DNA of 33,407 nt. Source: an uncultured Candidatus Saccharibacteria bacterium (GTDB lineage Bacteria; Patescibacteriota; Minisyncoccia; UBA6257; UBA9933). The stretch lies in NCBI GenBank assembly GCA_964362385.1, contig CAYIEH010000004.1:1-33407 (forward strand), in the 5' to 3' direction. The stretch's first letter is position 1; the number at the start of each line of letters is the position of its first letter. Shown piece after piece: positions 9,195 to 22,027 of the stretch. The translations under genes and the position numbers were made by a program. Under the pieces are notes generated by a model. It was not told the DNA's origin and made no database searches. It saw only the letters and a list, made by a program, of their open reading frames with translations.

Positions 9195-9232
9195 AATAAA
9201 AAATCCCTGCTAGCCTAAAAAGGCAAGCAGGG
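9195..9232 (-). terminator. intrinsic terminator after the DnaB-like gene
   Basis: Stem CCCTGCTAGCC/GGCAAGCAGGG (9205-9215 / 9222-9232, one mismatch), followed on the minus strand by ATTTTTTATT. Confidence 0.6.
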
Positions 9233-9250
9233 TTATTATAAAACTCAATT

Positions 9251-10555
9251 TCAGTTGTCCCTCCAATTACACAAATGTCCGTAGAACTTCGCATCCACTA
9301 TGACTGCCGGTCCGCCTTTGGCAATTATAATCTTGCCATTTTGAGGCGCTCCATTGGCAGAAGTCTTTTCATGATAATCTTCCCGGTGAAGCAGAAAAAC
9401 CATGTCAGCCAAATCTTCTATATTGCCGCTGTCTTTAAGATCGGATAAACGCGGCAAGCTGTCTTTTTCTTCTTCAGAAGTGCGATTAATTTGGCTTGAT
9501 GCCGACGTCGGCGTTTTAACTTCATTAACGCACCCGCGCAAGGCCTCGAGAATTTTATCCATGCTCTCTTTTTTCGTACGGCACTTTTCCGGCCAATTCA
9601 AATCCTGAAGATTCTCAATTACTATTAATCCCAGCTCTCCGATTTTGCCGCGTAGCGCTTTTATTCCGGAAATTATTGAAAACACATTCATAGAACTCTC
9701 AAATTTCACATGGAGTTTGGATTCATTGATTTTCTGGTGGGCTTTTCTGACTTTTTCCATTTCCTTTGCCGACACCTTTCCCCGTTTAAGGTCGTTGAAA
9801 TCAATTTCGCACATGGCTGAGAGTAATCTGAGAAAAATAGTTTCTTTAGTATGATTAGATGATCCGAAATAAACCGCCGGAAAACCGTCTTCAATGCAAA
9901 TTTTTCTCAAAAAGCTCAACTGCATTGCCGTCTTACCCATACCGGCTCTTCCGCCGATTATGGTTAAGTTTTTGGCAGGAAAACCCGCAATATATTTATT
10001 CAAACACTCTAATGGAGTTTCCTTGAAATAGGCAATGTGATCCGTCAAATTCTCTTCGCTCACTGACATACGGCCAACTTCTTCAGAACCGCACCGGCTT
10101 GAAATTTGCCTTAGCGCTTCTTGGCTTTTAAAAAGCAAAAGAGGTAAATCTTCGGCTTCTTCATAAACCATTTGCGCTATCTTGATTGAATTTTGAAGTA
10201 ATTTCCTGAGAAGCGATTTTTCTTTAACGATCTTCGCGTGGTATTTTACATTAGCTGACGTGGGAATGGTCTCGGCGAGCATACTAACATACTGTTCTCC
10301 TCCGATCATTTCCAAATCTCCGTTATTAATCAGTTTATCCGCTAAAGTAATAATGTCGGCTTCCTTTCCTTCTGCTGCGAGTTCCAAAATCGCGGCATAA
10401 ATCTTTCGGTGGTTTTCACGGTAAAAATCATCAGTCACCAAAATTTCTTTAGCAACCTGAATCGCGACTCCATCCAAAATCATAGCTCCTAAGACCGACT
10501 GCTCTGCTTCAAGATTTTGGGGCGGCAGCTTTTCCAAATGTTCTATTTTTTTCAT
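9251..10555 (-). CDS. DnaB-family helicase homolog with degenerate catalytic motifs, RT-associated
   Basis: N-terminal LPPQNLEAEQSVLGAMILD, Walker A GGRAGMGKT, SQINR, LSDLKDSGNIEDLAD. However FSLEM is FGSSN, IDYLQL is IENLQD, and KQRNGP is K-GGP. I start it at the ATG at 10555, which has SD AAAGGAGA and overlaps the RT stop as ATGA; the ORF-track start is 10609. Confidence 0.8.
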   Translation of the reverse strand: MKKIEHLEKLPPQNLEAEQSVLGAMILDGVAIQVAKEILVTDDFYRENHRKIYAAILELAAEGKEADIITLADKLINNGDLEMIGGEQYVSMLAETIPTSANVKYHAKIVKEKSLLRKLLQNSIKIAQMVYEEAEDLPLLLFKSQEALRQISSRCGSEEVGRMSVSEENLTDHIAYFKETPLECLNKYIAGFPAKNLTIIGGRAGMGKTAMQLSFLRKICIEDGFPAVYFGSSNHTKETIFLRLLSAMCEIDFNDLKRGKVSAKEMEKVRKAHQKINESKLHVKFESSMNVFSIISGIKALRGKIGELGLIVIENLQDLNWPEKCRTKKESMDKILEALRGCVNEVKTPTSASSQINRTSEEEKDSLPRLSDLKDSGNIEDLADMVFLLHREDYHEKTSANGAPQNGKIIIAKGGPAVIVDAKFYGHLCNWRDN

Positions 10556-11559
10556 CTCGTCTCCTTTGCCTGATATTCCAGCCATGGCTGCAAAAGCCAC
10601 TTCGGCCAATTGTTTTCATTGCCATAGATGCATCTTATGGCATTAACTCTTCCCAGTACTTCGCCACGAGAATACGTTCCATATCTGATTGCCGCATACA
10701 TTATTCTCCTATATTCTTTTTTCTTGCGGCGGCAAATATGAATTTTATCATTGACCACAGTTAACCCAAGCGCGTGGGGAATCGTTTTCCCTAAATTATC
10801 CTTGGTTTTTTCTGATTTAATGCTGAAACCGAACTTGGCCGGAATACTCAACAGCTCTTGTTTTACTTCAGAAACAATTATTTCTCCGGCGAAATTAAAG
10901 TCATCAACATAAACCGCCCAAAAAATATTATTTTTCCTGCACACAACATCAATCTCTTCACACATTGGTCTGTAAACCAGATTCAGCAGGATAGGACTCG
11001 CAGATGCGCCTTGGGGCAATCTTCGCTGGCCGTGGTAATAATAAGTCAAAAACCAGGCCAATGATTTTGCCACAGATTCATCAATCCCCAATCTCGCCAA
11101 AGTTTTCTCCACGTATTCTTCTTTAATACTGGGAAAAGCTTGGGCAATGTCAAAAGCAAAAAAATGCTTCTTGCCTAAAAGTCTTTGTATGGCTTTTTTT
11201 GAATTCCTCTCCCTTACGAAACCGTACGCATTATCGTGAGCTGAAAACTTTGAGTCCAACCAATCTTTAACGGCGCGATAAACTTTTTGCACTTCGGGAT
11301 GCGGTTGTAGAATTTCCCGTTCTTTGTTTTTTTCCCGCAAAAAGAAAATTCTAAAGCCGTAATAAAAAGTCGCTTTCACGGTTTTGCCTTTTTTAAAAAG
11401 CTCTGCCGTTGTTTTTGCAGATTTCAAAATCCTGAAAGCTTTGCGGATTTGCTTTTTAGGCAGTCCGATTAATCCTGAAAGAACTCCCAAAGTCCAAAGA
11501 AACCGAACTTGGGGAGAAACCGCTGACAACTTTTCTGGCGCTTCAGTTTCTTTAGACAT
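10552..11559 (-). CDS. retron-type reverse transcriptase
   Basis: 335 aa. Motifs: FYYGFRIFFLREKNKEREILQPHPEVQKV, AYGFVRERN, FAFDIAQAFPSI, LPQGASASPILLNL, YVDDFNFAG (YVDD at 10900-10911), GFSIKSEKTK, and retron-like LGLTVVNDKIHICRRKKKEYR. No maturase, endonuclease or other fused domain. SD GGAG lies 6 nt before the ATG. Confidence 0.85.
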   Translation of the reverse strand: MSKETEAPEKLSAVSPQVRFLWTLGVLSGLIGLPKKQIRKAFRILKSAKTTAELFKKGKTVKATFYYGFRIFFLREKNKEREILQPHPEVQKVYRAVKDWLDSKFSAHDNAYGFVRERNSKKAIQRLLGKKHFFAFDIAQAFPSIKEEYVEKTLARLGIDESVAKSLAWFLTYYYHGQRRLPQGASASPILLNLVYRPMCEEIDVVCRKNNIFWAVYVDDFNFAGEIIVSEVKQELLSIPAKFGFSIKSEKTKDNLGKTIPHALGLTVVNDKIHICRRKKKEYRRIMYAAIRYGTYSRGEVLGRVNAIRCIYGNENNWPKWLLQPWLEYQAKETR

Positions 11560-11600
11560 TAATGTCTCCTTTCACTTGGCATTTTGATTTTTAAAAGAAA

Positions 11601-11836
11601 TTGCAGGCAGACTTGGCTGGAATTGAAGCCCCTTTAATAAATCACCAGATTCGAGGTGCGCATCGTTAACGTAAGGAAAAGCCAATGCAACCTCGGGGGT
11701 CATTGTAGGGGGTGTCCCCCTACATTCTGTTACTGACATTTGATCCGCCGTCCGATTCAGAAAGCGGGTTTGAGACCTATTACTCGTGGCTATACCAGAG
11801 TCTTTTAGTCTCTCCTTACTGCCAGTCTGCCTGCAA
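11601..11836 (-). ncRNA. candidate retron-like ncRNA (msr-msd-like) closed by terminal inverted repeats
   Basis: TTGCAGGCAGACT(T)GGC at 11601-11617 is the reverse complement of 11821-11836. Internal perfect GC hairpin TGTAGGGG-GTGT-CCCCTACA (11704-11724). Second stem GAGGTGC/GCA(A)CCTC (11653-11696). Sits 42 nt upstream of the RT ATG and directly downstream of a promoter. Confidence 0.5.
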
Positions 11837-11848
11837 TCTTCTGCTTTT

Positions 11849-11877
11849 TTTATACAGATAAACATAAGCAATGTCAA
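11849..11877 (-). promoter_or_regulatory. sigma70-like promoter TTGACA-17-TATAAA driving the ncRNA/RT operon
   Basis: Minus strand: -35 at 11877-11872, -10 at 11854-11849, 12 nt before the first inverted-repeat arm. Confidence 0.5.
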
Positions 11878-12488: not shown

Positions 12489-12713
12489 TTACATTGAGCC
12501 CATTTTTTTAGTCTTCTCCACTTCTTTTCTTTTTCCTTCGCGATATAAAGCCGACAATCTCCTTTTATTTTTATTAACAGAACGATGTTTGTATCTTTTC
12601 TTTTTTGCTTCGCGCAAAACTCCGCTTTGCTGCATCTTTTTTGAAAAGCGGTAAAGAAAAGCGCTCATTGATTCTCCTCCTCTGCGTTTTAATTCCATTG
12701 TTTGAACCGGCAT
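12489..12713 (-). CDS. rpsU: 30S ribosomal protein S21
   Basis: 74 aa, very basic, with the ESMSAFLYRFSKKMQQSGVLREAKKKRYKHRS pattern of S21. Confidence 0.8.
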   Translation of the reverse strand: MPVQTMELKRRGGESMSAFLYRFSKKMQQSGVLREAKKKRYKHRSVNKNKRRLSALYREGKRKEVEKTKKMGSM

Positions 12714-12740
12714 AATGCAAACTGCGCGAATTTATAATAA

Positions 12741-12769
12741 CGCCGCGAATAAAATTTTAATTCGCGGCG
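12741..12769 (-). terminator. 10-bp hairpin between the HIT gene and rpsU
   Basis: CGCCGCGAAT / ATTCGCGGCG with a 9-nt AT loop. AT-rich tail on the minus strand. Confidence 0.45.
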
Positions 12770-12822
12770 CGACTCTTGCGGGAATGAGTCGAAGCTCAAA
12801 CGCATAAGTTCGCTGATCGGCA

Positions 12823-13230
12823 TTATGATTTAATAATTTTTTCTTTGATAATATCCAAACTTTCAGCCGGCGGATTGTCCACCACTGAATGAATTGACCC
12901 TCCTGAATCTCCCAGCCACCTGGGTATAATATGAATATGCAGATGGTCAATCGTCTGTCCGCTCACCTTACCATGGTTGATTCCGATTGTAAAGCCGTCT
13001 GGTAAAAGCGTTTTTTTTAACAATGCCGTCACATTTTTAACCGCTTTAAAAATTCCTTCAATTTTATCGTCTGGCAAATCTAAAATATTTTCCGCGTGAA
13101 CTTTCGGCAAAACCATCGTATGCCCCGGCGCTTTCGGATGGACATCTAAAATGGCGACGCTGTTATCGTCTTCGTAAATTATGCTGGCGCTTATTTCCTT
13201 GTTTGCGATTTTACAGAAAAGACAATCCAC
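12823..13230 (-). CDS. HIT-family (histidine triad) nucleotide hydrolase
   Basis: CLFCKI N-terminus and HLHIHIIPR histidine triad. GTG start. Confidence 0.85.
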   Translation of the reverse strand: MDCLFCKIANKEISASIIYEDDNSVAILDVHPKAPGHTMVLPKVHAENILDLPDDKIEGIFKAVKNVTALLKKTLLPDGFTIGINHGKVSGQTIDHLHIHIIPRWLGDSGGSIHSVVDNPPAESLDIIKEKIIKS

Positions 13231-13297
13231 AGATAGTAATTAGCCAATAGCGATTAGCCAATAGAATCCCTAGTGGCTAAACCCTAATAACTAGCGG

Positions 13298-14602
13298 CTA
13301 TTTTAGTTTCTTCTTCGCTTCCTCAACAACTTTTTTAAAAGACACGGTTTCCTGAACGCCGGTTCTCATATCTCTGATAATAATGCTTTCTTCAAAAACC
13401 TCTTTTTGCCCCAAAATCAAAGCCAAATCCGCTTTCTCTTTGTCGGCAATCCTTAATTGCGATTTCAGCGATTCCCTGCCGAACGATTCGCTGGTTTTTA
13501 CGCCTGACTTCCTGAATTCTTCAATTAAAGCCAGGCCCTTTTTCTTGGCCTCATCTCCGATGTGAATAAAAAATACTTTAGGGGGACTTTTAAGGGGCAT
13601 TGTTTTGCCCGTGCTTTTGATGATTTCAATAACTCTGTCAATCCCGACACTGCTTCCGACTGCAAACAATTTTCCCAATTTCAGCATCTCGGCCAAATAA
13701 TCATAGCGGCCGCCGCTGGCAATCGCAAAATTAAATCCTTCGGCAAAGATCTCAAAAACAGTTCTGTTGTAATAATCCAAACCCCTGACTAAAAAAGGAT
13801 CAACTAAATAAGGCAGTTTTAATTCGTCAAGAAATTCCAAAACTTTTTTAAAGTGGTTTTTGCAGGTCTCGCACAAAAAATCAAGGATAATCGGCGCTTC
13901 AACCCTGACAAGTAAACATTTTTCGTCTTTGCAATCAAGAAGCCTAAAAGAGTTGACGTTTAATCGGCGCTGGCAATCCTTGCAAATTTGTTTCTGATGT
14001 TTCCGGTAATAATTTTCCAGCTTCCTCTGGTAAGCGGAGCGGCACTTGGCGCAACCGATACTGTTTATATGAACGGTAAAATTCTTTAGTCTTAATTCTT
14101 CAAGCAGGCGATAGACGACGAGTATGGCTTGGGCGTCGTAAATCGGATCATTCTCGCCTCCCAGAATTTCAAAACCTGTCTGGAAAAATTGCCGAAATCT
14201 TCCGGCCTGGGGCTGTTCATATCTGAACATCAAACCTTCATAATAGAGTTTCAGCGGATGGCCAAACCGAGAAAATCCGTTTTCAAAATAAGCCCTGACA
14301 ATCGGCGCCGTGCCTTCAGGCCTCAATACCAGCCTATCGCCGCCTTTTGACTTAATAAAAAACATCTGTTTCTCCACAATGTCGGTTTCCTTTCCGACGG
14401 TCTTTTCAAAAAGTTCCGCCATTTCCACAATGGGCGTATCGATCCTTAAAAAGTTATAAAATTCGCCGATATTTTTTGCAGCCTGCCTTGCTTTATCCCA
14501 AAAGGGCTGGTCTTCGGGAACAATATCATGCATTCCTTTGGGAGACTGGAAAAGATTTTTTTTCCTTGAAGACTCTTTTGATTTTTTGGAAGTTCTTGCC
14601 AT
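13298..14602 (-). CDS. hisS: histidine--tRNA ligase
   Basis: GMHDIVPED, LRPEGTAPIVRAY, Cys-rich insertion domain, C-terminal anticodon-binding region. Confidence 0.9.
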   Translation of the reverse strand: MARTSKKSKESSRKKNLFQSPKGMHDIVPEDQPFWDKARQAAKNIGEFYNFLRIDTPIVEMAELFEKTVGKETDIVEKQMFFIKSKGGDRLVLRPEGTAPIVRAYFENGFSRFGHPLKLYYEGLMFRYEQPQAGRFRQFFQTGFEILGGENDPIYDAQAILVVYRLLEELRLKNFTVHINSIGCAKCRSAYQRKLENYYRKHQKQICKDCQRRLNVNSFRLLDCKDEKCLLVRVEAPIILDFLCETCKNHFKKVLEFLDELKLPYLVDPFLVRGLDYYNRTVFEIFAEGFNFAIASGGRYDYLAEMLKLGKLFAVGSSVGIDRVIEIIKSTGKTMPLKSPPKVFFIHIGDEAKKKGLALIEEFRKSGVKTSESFGRESLKSQLRIADKEKADLALILGQKEVFEESIIIRDMRTGVQETVSFKKVVEEAKKKLK

Positions 14603-14635
14603 TTCAAAAAAATATTTTAAGCGCTTGGAACAAAT

Positions 14636-15184
14636 TTAATAAGCCGGCCTTTCAAAAGCCATCACTTTATTTAGCGGCCAAAGTCTCAGCCAGACAACGC
14701 CTATGATATCGGATTTTCCCAATGACCCCCATTGGCGGGAATCAAAACTCGCATCCCGATTGTCGCCCAAAACGAAATACTCACTATCTTTTAACGTCGC
14801 ATCCCTGTCTCCCGTTGTTTTAAGTTTTGCGGGCAAATAACGTTCGCCGACTAAAAATCCTTTCGGATTTTGATTATTAAAAACGTAAACTTCTCCGTTT
14901 TTAATCCTTACCCTTTCTCCGGGCAAACCGATTATTCTTTTGATGAAATAAGTGCTTTTGTCTCCCGGATAGCGAAAAACCACAACATCGCCCCTTTGAG
15001 GCTCCCTGAATTGATAAGAAATTTCATTGATTAAAAGATAATCGCCAGTATGAAAATTGGGTTCCATACTGGAGCCGTTAACCAAAAACGGCTGAACCAA
15101 AAAATAGCGGACTCCAACAACCACCAACACGGCAACCAAAACGATTTCCAGTATTTCCCTTAAAGTGTACAAAAATGACTTCAT
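14636..15184 (-). CDS. lepB: signal peptidase I
   Basis: NGSSMEPNF (catalytic Ser), FIKRIIGLPGE (Lys), GDNRDASFDSRQWG. Confidence 0.9.
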   Translation of the reverse strand: MKSFLYTLREILEIVLVAVLVVVGVRYFLVQPFLVNGSSMEPNFHTGDYLLINEISYQFREPQRGDVVVFRYPGDKSTYFIKRIIGLPGERVRIKNGEVYVFNNQNPKGFLVGERYLPAKLKTTGDRDATLKDSEYFVLGDNRDASFDSRQWGSLGKSDIIGVVWLRLWPLNKVMAFERPAY

Positions 15185-20957: not shown

Positions 20958-21085
20958 AGACCGAGCACTTCAACACCTATTCGCTTTCCTTATAAAAACG
21001 TTTTTAATCTAAAATGATGCTGTCATAGGAAAAATTGAATTTTAAAGGGTGTTGTGGAAAGCGTTGTGCTCGGTTCACTACCGGG
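20949..21085. repeat. 137-nt inverted-repeat-bounded (MITE-like) element between the smpB pseudo-start and real start
   Basis: Arms CCCGGTAGTAGACCGAGCAC (20949-20968) and GTGCTCGGTTCACTACCGGG (21066-21085), 18/20 complementary. Inner arms CAACACC/GGTGTTG (20971-20977 / 21048-21054). Confidence 0.65.
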
Positions 21086-21086
21086 T

Positions 21087-21536
21087 ATGAAATATATGAC
21101 AATAATAACTACAAATAAAAGAGCATTATACGATTACATTATTTTAGAAACCTACGAGGCGGGAATTGAGCTGTCCGGACAGGAAGTAAAGTCAATTAAA
21201 AACGGCAGAATAAATCTTTCTGGATCCCACGTTATTATCAAAAACAACGAAGCTCTGCTGTTTAATGCCGACATTCCGCCCTATCAGCCGAAAAACGCTC
21301 CCGAAGATTACGGTTCAAAACGCAGCCGCCGGCTTTTACTTCATAAATCGGAAATAAAAAGCCTTATCGGCAAAACGCGGGAAAAAAGCTTGACTTTAGT
21401 GCCTTTAAAAGTTTATACTAAACACCATAAAATTAAATTAGAAATCGGACTGGTAAAAAGCAGGAAAAAGGCTGACAAAAGGGATTTGATTAAAAAAAGA
21501 GAGACAAGGAGAGAAATAAAAAAAGTGATTGGGTAG
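21087..21536 (+). CDS. smpB: SsrA-binding protein SmpB
   Basis: NKRALYDYIILETYEAGIELSGQEVKSIKNGRINL, RRLLLHKSEI, basic C-terminal tail. Start taken at ATG 21087 (or 21096) rather than the GTG at 21054, which lies inside the repeat arm. Confidence 0.9.
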   Translation: MKYMTIITTNKRALYDYIILETYEAGIELSGQEVKSIKNGRINLSGSHVIIKNNEALLFNADIPPYQPKNAPEDYGSKRSRRLLLHKSEIKSLIGKTREKSLTLVPLKVYTKHHKIKLEIGLVKSRKKADKRDLIKKRETRREIKKVIG

Positions 21537-21574: not shown

Positions 21575-21926
21575 GGGAGCGCAAGTTTCGACAATGATTT
21601 GATTAAGAAAATCGCAAGCCGAGGATGATTTCTCACCTCGTTAATCAAGGAATCAAAAACATAACTGCCAACAGAAATGTTGCTCCCGCTTTAGCTTTTG
21701 CTTAAAGCGGCATCCCATGCTAATCGCTTAAGTTAGCAGTACGGGGTGTTATACATTAAGCTTGTTTGCTAAATTGCCAAAGTTTAGCAAAGACAAAATT
21801 TTGGCAAAGATTTTTGAAGATTTTGCTTAATTCTTACTTCTTAAATCTTACATCCGAATTAAGCTAAGCTTGTAGAAATTTTCTTGAGAAATCGTTGGAC
21901 GAGGGTTCAATCCCTCCGCTTCCACC
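21575..21926 (+). ncRNA. ssrA: tmRNA
   Basis: 5' GGGAGCG pairs with 3' CGCTTCC, including the G3:U wobble. UUCGAC box. GCCGAGG...CCUCGU pseudoknot-1-type pairing. Tag reading frame 21667-21705 encodes ANRNVAPALAFA-stop. T-arm GAGGGTTCAATCCCTC, then ACC. Lies immediately downstream of smpB. Confidence 0.9.
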
Positions 21927-22027
21927 CCGTTAGAAAGCAGAAAATACTGGATTAGTTTTTAAAAAACTGATATTAAGGCATAAAATATTAATATACCCAA
22001 TTAATGAATTGTCTGTTTTCTAACGAG
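21925..22027. repeat. repeat family A-like element (CCCCGTTAGAA ... TTCTAACGAGG) abutting the ssrA 3' end
   Basis: Terminal inverted repeats CCCCGTTAGAAAGCAG / CTGTTTTCTAACGAGG. TCCACC precedes the element and TCCACCA follows it. Confidence 0.55.

Follow-up and report, generated by a model that had tools for sequence, protein, structure and literature searches.

The subject of this study is a compact three-part cassette found in a stretch of 33,407 nucleotides (nt) from an uncultured Candidatus Saccharibacteria bacterium (assembly GCA_964362385.1, contig CAYIEH010000004.1), a small-genome groundwater bacterium of the Candidate Phyla Radiation (CPR); the whole of this stretch is referred to as the window, and all positions are those of the window. 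The cassette lies wholly on the minus strand at 9195-11877 and comprises, in the direction of transcription, a structured non-coding RNA (ncRNA) of ~237 nt (11837-11601), delimited by an inverted repeat and by its fold, a retron-like reverse transcriptase (RT) of 335 amino acids with a YVDD box (11559-10552) and a DnaB-family paralogue of 434 amino acids with degenerate ATPase motifs (10555-9251), the last two recognised from their open reading frames (ORFs) and from profile matches. Upstream of the ncRNA, a sigma-70-type promoter is read directly in the sequence at 11877-11849 on the minus strand, with the hexamers TTGACA at 11877-11872 and TATAAA at 11854-11849 separated by a 17-nt spacer. 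This promoter escaped a consensus scan because the scan accepts only T as the sixth base of the -10 hexamer; alignment of the upstream regions places TTGACA-N17-TAnnAT directly 5' of the ncRNA in homologous loci also, and the promoter is the candidate driver of the cassette. The RT ORF is preceded by an AGGAG Shine-Dalgarno sequence and its TGA stop shares the tetranucleotide ATGA (10555-10552) with the ATG of the partner gene, while the operon is closed by an intrinsic terminator at 9232-9195, in which a hairpin of -20.3 kcal/mol (z = -3.35) is followed by UUUUUU. An earlier note, made from the DNA letters of this stretch, had described the promoter, an ncRNA with inverted-repeat ends and a GC hairpin, the Shine-Dalgarno-led RT, the ATGA overlap and the terminator, and all of them are located where it had put them. 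The RT family to which the cassette belongs consists of ~59 clusters at 44-61% identity, from which 39 loci were collected out of GTDB genomes, JGI metagenomes and exact-protein look-ups; since the cassette arrangement recurs in every related locus, it is beyond chance. One of these loci, L018 (Hainich groundwater, 0.1-um fraction), encodes an RT that is 100% identical to that of the window and represents the same population.

The window RT matches Pfam RVT_1 at 1.3e-16. Among the PADLOC models its best match is the retron RT_III-A (7e-41, 138 bits), followed by types II-A, VI and XI with 115, 112 and 99 bits, respectively, so that no type stands out; the best 25 matches listed are all retron RTs, and none of these 25 is a model of the defence-associated RT (DRT), UG or Abi classes. 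A profile of the RT family compared with the PDB finds the retron Ec86 first (1e-24), then Ec83, Kva2, Ec67, Ec78 and Eco8, whereas the RTs of group II introns come no nearer than 1e-8. The residues D137, D219 and D220 are invariant across the family, the YVDD box is intact, and the length of ~330 amino acids is that of the RTs of Ec86/Eco1, Ec83 and Kva2. The score obtained with NCBIfam retron_St85 is 112 bits (cutoff 235) and that with the group II RT model 38 bits (cutoff 300). Retron RTs of known type score 300-650 bits on the hidden Markov model (HMM) of their own type and roughly 140-330 on those of other types. In the alignment to the Ec83 RT, the NAKIH of the latter stands against AIQRL (KAxxR if moved one residue) and its HVTG against HALG, and the family consensus at the NAxxH and VTG sites reads KKAxExL and LGLT; unlike retron RTs, the window RT therefore carries KAxxR/L and (A)LG at these places. 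The earlier note had spoken of retron-like motifs, which agrees with the YVDD box and the retron matches; to be added as corrections are the lack of strict NAxxH and VTG motifs and of a fit to any type. Retrons are reportedly divided into types I-XIII by Mestre et al. in 2020. Judged from profile scores and motifs, the RT has its nearest counterparts among retron RTs, yet it is an outlier that fits none of these 13 types.

These scores bear on the reading, raised in the earlier note, that RT and helicase serve a retro-element as its replication module, a reading considered here for a mobile retro-element, a group II intron or a diversity-generating retroelement (DGR). The RT does adjoin a replication-type protein, and ~80% of CPR RTs are DGR RTs according to a review (PMC8632793). 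Against this stand the weak scores on group II RT models, the lack of any Rfam intron match, and the fact that neither a template/variable repeat pair nor long direct repeats were found; the best matches of the RT are retron RTs and not RTs of either of these classes. The cassette is also single copy, has the composition of its flanks and has no integrase or tRNA nearby, and no relatives of the RT were found among the viral contigs of IMG/VR, which argues that it is not phage-borne. On the grounds of the missing repeats and the weak group II scores the DGR and group II intron assignments were rejected, and the retro-element reading as a whole, for which nothing in the analysis speaks further, is scarcely credible.

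Beside the main family there is a second, tiny RT lineage (P0060, P0339; L043 8001-10570), 28% identical to the window RT, in which YVDN or YADN replaces YxDD and whose RT, to judge by this box, may be inactive. It too is followed by a DnaB-like gene, which is more degenerate and has no IENLQ, SQxxR or Arg finger, and the ncRNA covariance model described below (R1) finds no match upstream of the RT in L043. That the RT of this second lineage also precedes a DnaB-like gene shows the link between RT and DnaB to be old.

The two ends of the ncRNA form a perfect inverted repeat of 14 nt (11824-11837 with 11600-11613, 210 nt apart), which a 1-nt bulge and a GGC/GCC pairing lengthen to a duplex of -34.4 kcal/mol. 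This gives an a1/a2-like terminal stem with its 5' arm at 11837-11821 and its 3' arm at 11617-11601. The 261-nt stretch that contains the ncRNA folds at -102 kcal/mol (z = -7.5), a value that none of 200 shuffles equalled, and the GC hairpin lies within it at 11704-11724. In the family at large the terminal stem is found in ~16 of 18 loci although its sequence changes from locus to locus, as illustrated by the 5' arms CAGGCAG, GAGCGGGTAA, CAGCGAGTGAC, GACAGACGA and GAGTGAG, and cognate arms pair better than non-cognate ones (-19.3 versus -12.8 kcal/mol, p = 7e-6). All 17 aligned ncRNAs have a G close to where the 5' arm ends on its inner side, G11823 in the window; by analogy with retron biology, this G is the candidate 2'-OH priming (branching) nucleotide.

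Inside this stem, the ncRNA is divided into a conserved, msr-like 5' half (11828-11691, as delimited by the R1 match) and a variable, msd-like 3' half (11690-11618, as delimited by the upstream alignment) that is the putative template for complementary DNA (cDNA). The 5' half contains a three-way junction, in which P0 encloses P1 and P2, followed by P3, a near-invariant hairpin CCGCUUUCUGAAUCGGACGGCGG (~11767-11745 in the window), and P4, which in the window is the hairpin GUAGGGGGACACCCCCUAC (11723-11705) and across the family the hairpin CCaGGGGACACCCCuGG followed by ACCCC. Together these five helices amount to 39 pairs, 26 of which show compensatory changes in an alignment made from sequence only. 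In this structure 86.6% of the cells are paired, against 76% in shuffles, none of 500 of which reached 86.6%, and against at most 55% in slid controls; independent folding gives the same shape in 15 of 17 sequences. The covariance model R1 scores 77 bits (E = 1e-13) on the window and matches once per RT locus, upstream of the RT and on its strand, in all 21 loci with enough upstream DNA, including four that were absent from model building, and it has no match in the control locus. The 3' half varies from 77 to 237 nt, is not conserved in sequence across loci and folds in the window as an imperfect hairpin, the total size of the ncRNA across loci being 240-420 nt. No match was found in the ncRNA region with Rfam at either gathering or permissive thresholds. 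A 101-amino-acid ORF that overlaps the ncRNA was considered as a protein gene and rejected, as it has no protein-level conservation.

Directly 3' of the 3' arm, the upstream alignment displays a conserved U-rich motif, TTTCTTTTAAAAAT in the window (11600-11587), and a TTCTTTAAAAAT-like motif is kept at this place in nearly all loci (L001-L031 compared). Six loci (L004, L005, L010, L019, L025 and L028) carry an extra GC-rich hairpin between the 3' arm and the TTCTTTAAAAAT motif. The U-rich motif could act as an attenuator or terminator, fixing the 3' end of the ncRNA and keeping down transcription that runs on into the RT.

DRT2 and DRT9, defence systems with RTs of the UG class, likewise combine an RT with a structured ncRNA of its own that lies upstream and templates an effector cDNA. 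Their RTs belong to the UG/Abi class and are not known to have an a1/a2 stem. A cassette of this kind would use its ncRNA to template a long or repetitive effector cDNA that the DnaB-like protein senses or handles, and several traits suit it: the RT stands apart from known retron RTs and has no strict NAxxH and VTG, the ncRNA, with its five helices and 240-420 nt, is bigger and more elaborate than most msr/msd RNAs, and a ring protein able to bind single-stranded DNA would go well with a long cDNA. Nevertheless, the best matches of the RT are all retron RTs, with no DRT, UG or Abi model among the 25 mentioned above, and a terminal a1/a2-like stem with an invariant G at its inner end is the hallmark of retrons. 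A mechanism of the DRT type is thus considered quite improbable.

The third component of the cassette is a homologue of the replicative helicase DnaB in its domains and its fold. Pfam recognises the DnaB N-terminal domain (1e-32) and DnaB_C (1e-47), so that all three profiles which the earlier note had put forward for this locus, RVT_1 included, match; and the AlphaFold2 model (mean predicted local distance difference test score 82.5) finds as its top Foldseek matches only replicative DnaBs, over the full length and at E ~1e-31. It thereby shares the two-domain fold of the helicases of G. stearothermophilus (2R6A/4ESV), E. coli and V. cholerae. The alignment of 17 RT-linked partners with canonical DnaBs and the G. 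stearothermophilus (Bst) structure, together with a check of the resulting signature in 27 copies, separates what is kept from what is lost. All RT-linked partners retain the Walker A motif GxGKT, the SQxxR motif and the N-terminal PPQNxEAE domain, with Walker A and the N-terminal domain kept in 27 of 27 copies, and this N-terminal, primase-binding domain is conserved as well as in canonical DnaB. However, the catalytic Glu of the SLEM motif (Bst E241) is lost in 27 of 27 copies, its place being taken by differing residues (Q, G, E, M, H, N, S), and the Arg finger (Bst R420) is gone, likewise in 27 of 27, through a two-residue deletion that turns AKQRNGP into xK--GGP. In all RT-linked partners the Walker B sequence IDYLQLM has become IENLQQL (Bst D320E), the RESGxIEQDAD loop is degenerate, and ITGxPTGFxDLD is replaced by ETPxxxLN, with a deletion of ~7 residues in the adjacent linker; IENLQ and ETPxxxLN are common to all 27 copies. 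In the 22 canonical DnaBs aligned alongside, SLEM, DYLQLM and KQRNGP are all intact. Lacking both the catalytic Glu and the Arg finger, and with the loop for DNA translocation largely lost, the partner would be unable to act as a replicative motor. Residues restricted to the subfamily have also been noted, namely a W-P pair after IENLQ (NLQDLNWPEK, residues ~321-322) and a C-terminal Trp (~431), which are candidate contacts to the RT or to nucleic acid.

Database searches set the partner apart in the same manner. Its score on the TIGR00665 equivalog is 284.5 bits, under the cutoff of 385.25. The RT-type signature is present in each of its ten closest database relatives; from the eleventh on the sampled matches are canonical DnaBs of unrelated phyla, e.g., Nitrospirota, one of them with rplI upstream, a neighbour that the partner does not have. 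In an exhaustive HMMER search over 1.84 billion cluster representatives, the signature is present in only 17 of the best 150 matches and holds the top ranks. An exact-sequence database look-up of the window partner returned no record.

The association of partner and RT is very strict. A full-length DnaB homologue follows the RT in all 37 loci with enough downstream DNA, and in the 17 loci examined for this the partner starts between -79 and +11 nt from the RT stop in every case. Pairwise identities of RT and partner are correlated (r = 0.82; none of 5000 Mantel permutations as high), and the two proteins co-evolve, with the partner diverging faster (mean identity 36% versus 51% for the RT). 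The adjacency of the two genes and the terminal stem of the ncRNA, whose presence in homologous loci the earlier note had singled out as a check, are both conserved. Some copies show lesions. In L018 (4811-6115), codon 29 of the partner gene is changed from GGA to TGA, a premature stop under code 11 that at ~4x coverage is possibly an error; if real, this nonsense codon means that the partner is dispensable. In L024 (1203-2463) the DnaB-like gene, and in L008 (6001-7009) the RT, is split over two frames by a frameshift, representing either pseudogenes or assembly errors.

The simplest objection to a dedicated partner is that the gene is an ordinary replicative helicase, possibly the only one of the cell, upstream of which a retron RT and its ncRNA have come to lie by chance or because the place is a targeting site. 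The protein is full length, has both DnaB domains and the DnaB fold, and resides in a housekeeping neighbourhood, and neither the window nor the flanks of 5-10 kb taken at each locus showed a second dnaB. Yet the loss of the catalytic Glu and of the Arg finger in 27 of 27 copies, the TIGR00665 score under the cutoff, the jump in the database ranks from ten RT-type relatives to canonical proteins of unrelated phyla, the co-evolution with the RT and the possible nonsense allele in the sibling contig L018 together argue strongly that the partner is not a housekeeping helicase, and this explanation is very improbable. The partner is instead strongly argued, from its sequence signature, to be a member of a distinct and catalytically degenerate DnaB subfamily. 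The earlier note had taken it for a ring-helicase homologue that serves as a dedicated partner and not as a chance housekeeping neighbour; the homology and the dedication are borne out by a separate subfamily that co-evolves with the RT, while the idea of a normal ring helicase has to be given up in view of the lost catalytic Glu and Arg finger. Likewise, the tripartite organisation of ncRNA, RT and partner after the fashion of a retron, also proposed there, gains support from the retron-type RT matches and from the conserved adjacency and stem. It can be stated with high confidence that the three parts make up a conserved unit and that its DnaB paralogue is dedicated to it and is not a motor.

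Several features thus tie the cassette to retrons: the order of promoter, ncRNA, RT and partner on one strand, an ncRNA whose ends pair as inverted repeats, with a conserved G where the stem ends, and which combines a conserved 5' half with a variable 3' half, an RT of retron size whose best matches are retron RTs, and a conserved accessory gene tightly coupled to that RT. In contrast to described retrons, it has the deviating RT motifs discussed above, an ncRNA of five helices without an Rfam match, a DnaB paralogue as partner, a class absent from PADLOC, and a CPR host with a housekeeping neighbourhood. Retron-like in its proposed workings, the cassette nonetheless falls within none of the described retron types, nor does its partner qualify as a bona fide replicative DnaB.

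The nearest published parallel is TXI_noncan_h, a protease-less lineage of type XI-like retrons from Bacillota and Bacteroidota (Toro, bioRxiv 10.64898/2026.05.14.725207, May 2026). In this lineage separate DnaB_C proteins are found in 20 of 29 loci, mostly at position +1 and sometimes upstream, and the ncRNA is located upstream, is flanked by a1/a2 repeats and forms a compact double stem-loop of 23 pairs; Patescibacteria are absent from the preprint and its supplements (10.64898/2026.05.14.725207). Both lineages have a protease-less retron-like RT, a separate DnaB_C protein and an a1/a2-flanked upstream ncRNA. Unlike TXI_noncan_h, the window RT matches III-A better than XI, it lies next to the partner in all 37 loci with enough downstream DNA and the ncRNA is much larger, so that RT clade, host, strictness of pairing and ncRNA all differ and the two are set apart by description. 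The statement of the earlier note that no retron with a DnaB-like partner had been described is hence no longer quite true. The full-text literature searched contains no paper that ties retrons or RTs to DnaB in CPR bacteria and none on DnaB-like defence effectors. As far as could be found, a DnaB partner with a degenerate ATPase is undescribed, and of retron-like systems of this sort there is essentially no description.

How might such a cassette work? In the proposed model, the ncRNA, the RT and the DnaB paralogue would be transcribed from one promoter as an operon, and the ends of the ncRNA would pair as a long a1/a2-like stem. The 5' half, with the P0/P1/P2 junction, P3 and P4, would then serve as the RT-binding scaffold and the variable 3' half as the template. 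Because the anatomy of the cassette is that of a retron, we infer that the RT, with its intact YVDD box, primes on G11823, which is invariant and lies where the 5' arm ends on its inner side, as in retrons, and copies the variable half. The product would be a single-stranded DNA of ~70-200 nt that is still attached to RNA, that is, an msDNA (multicopy single-stranded DNA); by this analogy the cassette probably carries out retron-type msDNA synthesis. The retention of the P-loop and the collar, combined with the loss of the residues for hydrolysis and translocation, fits a nucleotide-binding ring whose ligand is single-stranded DNA or proteins that interact with DnaB, and does not fit a motor; the partner would probably sit on the RT-msDNA complex as such a ring or as a decoy. 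This complex would restrain the pseudo-helicase. A phage that disturbs the msDNA or the replisome would free it, and the liberated protein would poison replication, e.g., by sequestering the primase or the helicase loader or by blocking forks, leading to abortive infection. By analogy with characterised retrons, which as far as is known all act in defence, the most economical account would be a defence akin to a toxin-antitoxin system, with the pseudo-helicase blocking replication once it is released. For the anti-phage role taken by itself the scales are evenly balanced. The whole chain, i.e., a vertically stable three-part retron-like cassette in a small set of CPR/Patescibacteria-type genomes that acts through a pseudo-helicase in defence, is on balance favoured.

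A number of points weigh against this chain. At no more than 138 bits on any retron-type HMM, the window RT falls under even the cross-type range of ~140-330 bits, and the strict retron motifs NAxxH and VTG are absent from it. PADLOC contains no model that matches the partner. The msDNA, the RT-partner complex and the phenotype are all drawn by analogy. Moreover, the surroundings are not those expected of a defence system. No defence island, integrase or tRNA lies near the cassette in the window, its GC content equals that of the flanks without any compositional break, and the RT has diverged about as much as the housekeeping genes beside it, none of which is typical of defence systems. Context and divergence fit a domesticated cellular role equally well.

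Under such a role, the complex of RT, msDNA and pseudo-DnaB would regulate or assist chromosome replication in these reduced genomes instead of providing immunity, e.g., through control of helicase loading, titration of the primase or signalling of replication stress. This reading draws on the position of the locus, which varies in its neighbours from one genome to another but is always among housekeeping genes (ribosomal protein operon, gyrB, ligA, hisS) and without island features, on a GC content equal to that of the flanks and on the conservation of the primase-binding N-terminal domain, which matches that of canonical DnaB. It also draws on the comparison of the window with locus L015, a distant lineage, in which the RTs are 44% and the housekeeping proteins 43% identical, few flanking orthologues being shared. 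A block consisting of the S26 signal peptidase, HisRS, HIT, S21 and YqeY adjoins the cassette in both, at 12489-15184 (minus strand) in the window and at 12547-16418 in L015, on opposite sides; the same block and an RT identity near that of housekeeping proteins suggest long vertical inheritance. What speaks against domestication is the rarity of the family, with ~59 RT clusters and 17 partner clusters, together with the possible null allele in the sibling contig L018 and the defensive function that, as far as is known, all characterised retrons have. CPR genomes number in the thousands, so that the distribution of the family looks patchy and not core-like. A domesticated retron of this general kind is therefore unlikely, though to be reckoned with. 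Its more specific form, in which single-stranded DNA made by the RT and an ATPase-dead ring control or replace helicase loading or primase recruitment, to the extreme of the partner being the sole DnaB homologue, is distinctly unlikely.

The remaining genes of the window are all of the housekeeping kind. They encode RF2, L25, FBA, YchF, PyrE/F, YqeY, S21, HIT, HisRS and signal peptidase, and further Pth, FolD, ArgRS, SmpB with tmRNA, IF3, EF-Tu, RpoA and S4. The smpB gene (21054-21536, plus strand) is followed by the tmRNA (21575-21927, plus strand) with the tag peptide ANRNVAPALAFA, an ordinary trans-translation pair. Elsewhere, in L012-L014 (~12670-14250), whose RTs are identical, the gene after the partner encodes a superfamily 2 (SF2; ResIII/DEAD) helicase that is intact in one assembly (523 amino acids) and truncated or split in the others, reflecting pseudogenisation or assembly differences. 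This gene was considered as a variable defence gene and rejected, as it encodes a generic helicase with no defence signal.

In all, if the proposed model is true, the cassette would represent a new class of retron-like partner, a catalytically dead copy of a replicative helicase, and would point to replication as the process that is guarded or poisoned. A further gain would be an RT clade that branches deeply and has a large and well-defined ncRNA, a possible new scaffold for the production of RT-DNA. Two independent lineages, this one and the RT-DnaB_C lineage of gut bacteria, suggest that a functional tie between retron RTs and the DnaB family recurs. In the CPR bacteria, where DGR RTs are believed to predominate, a retron-like unit is shown to be retained in the core genome as well, and its unusually stable inheritance embedded among housekeeping genes raises a non-defence role for a retron as a possibility.

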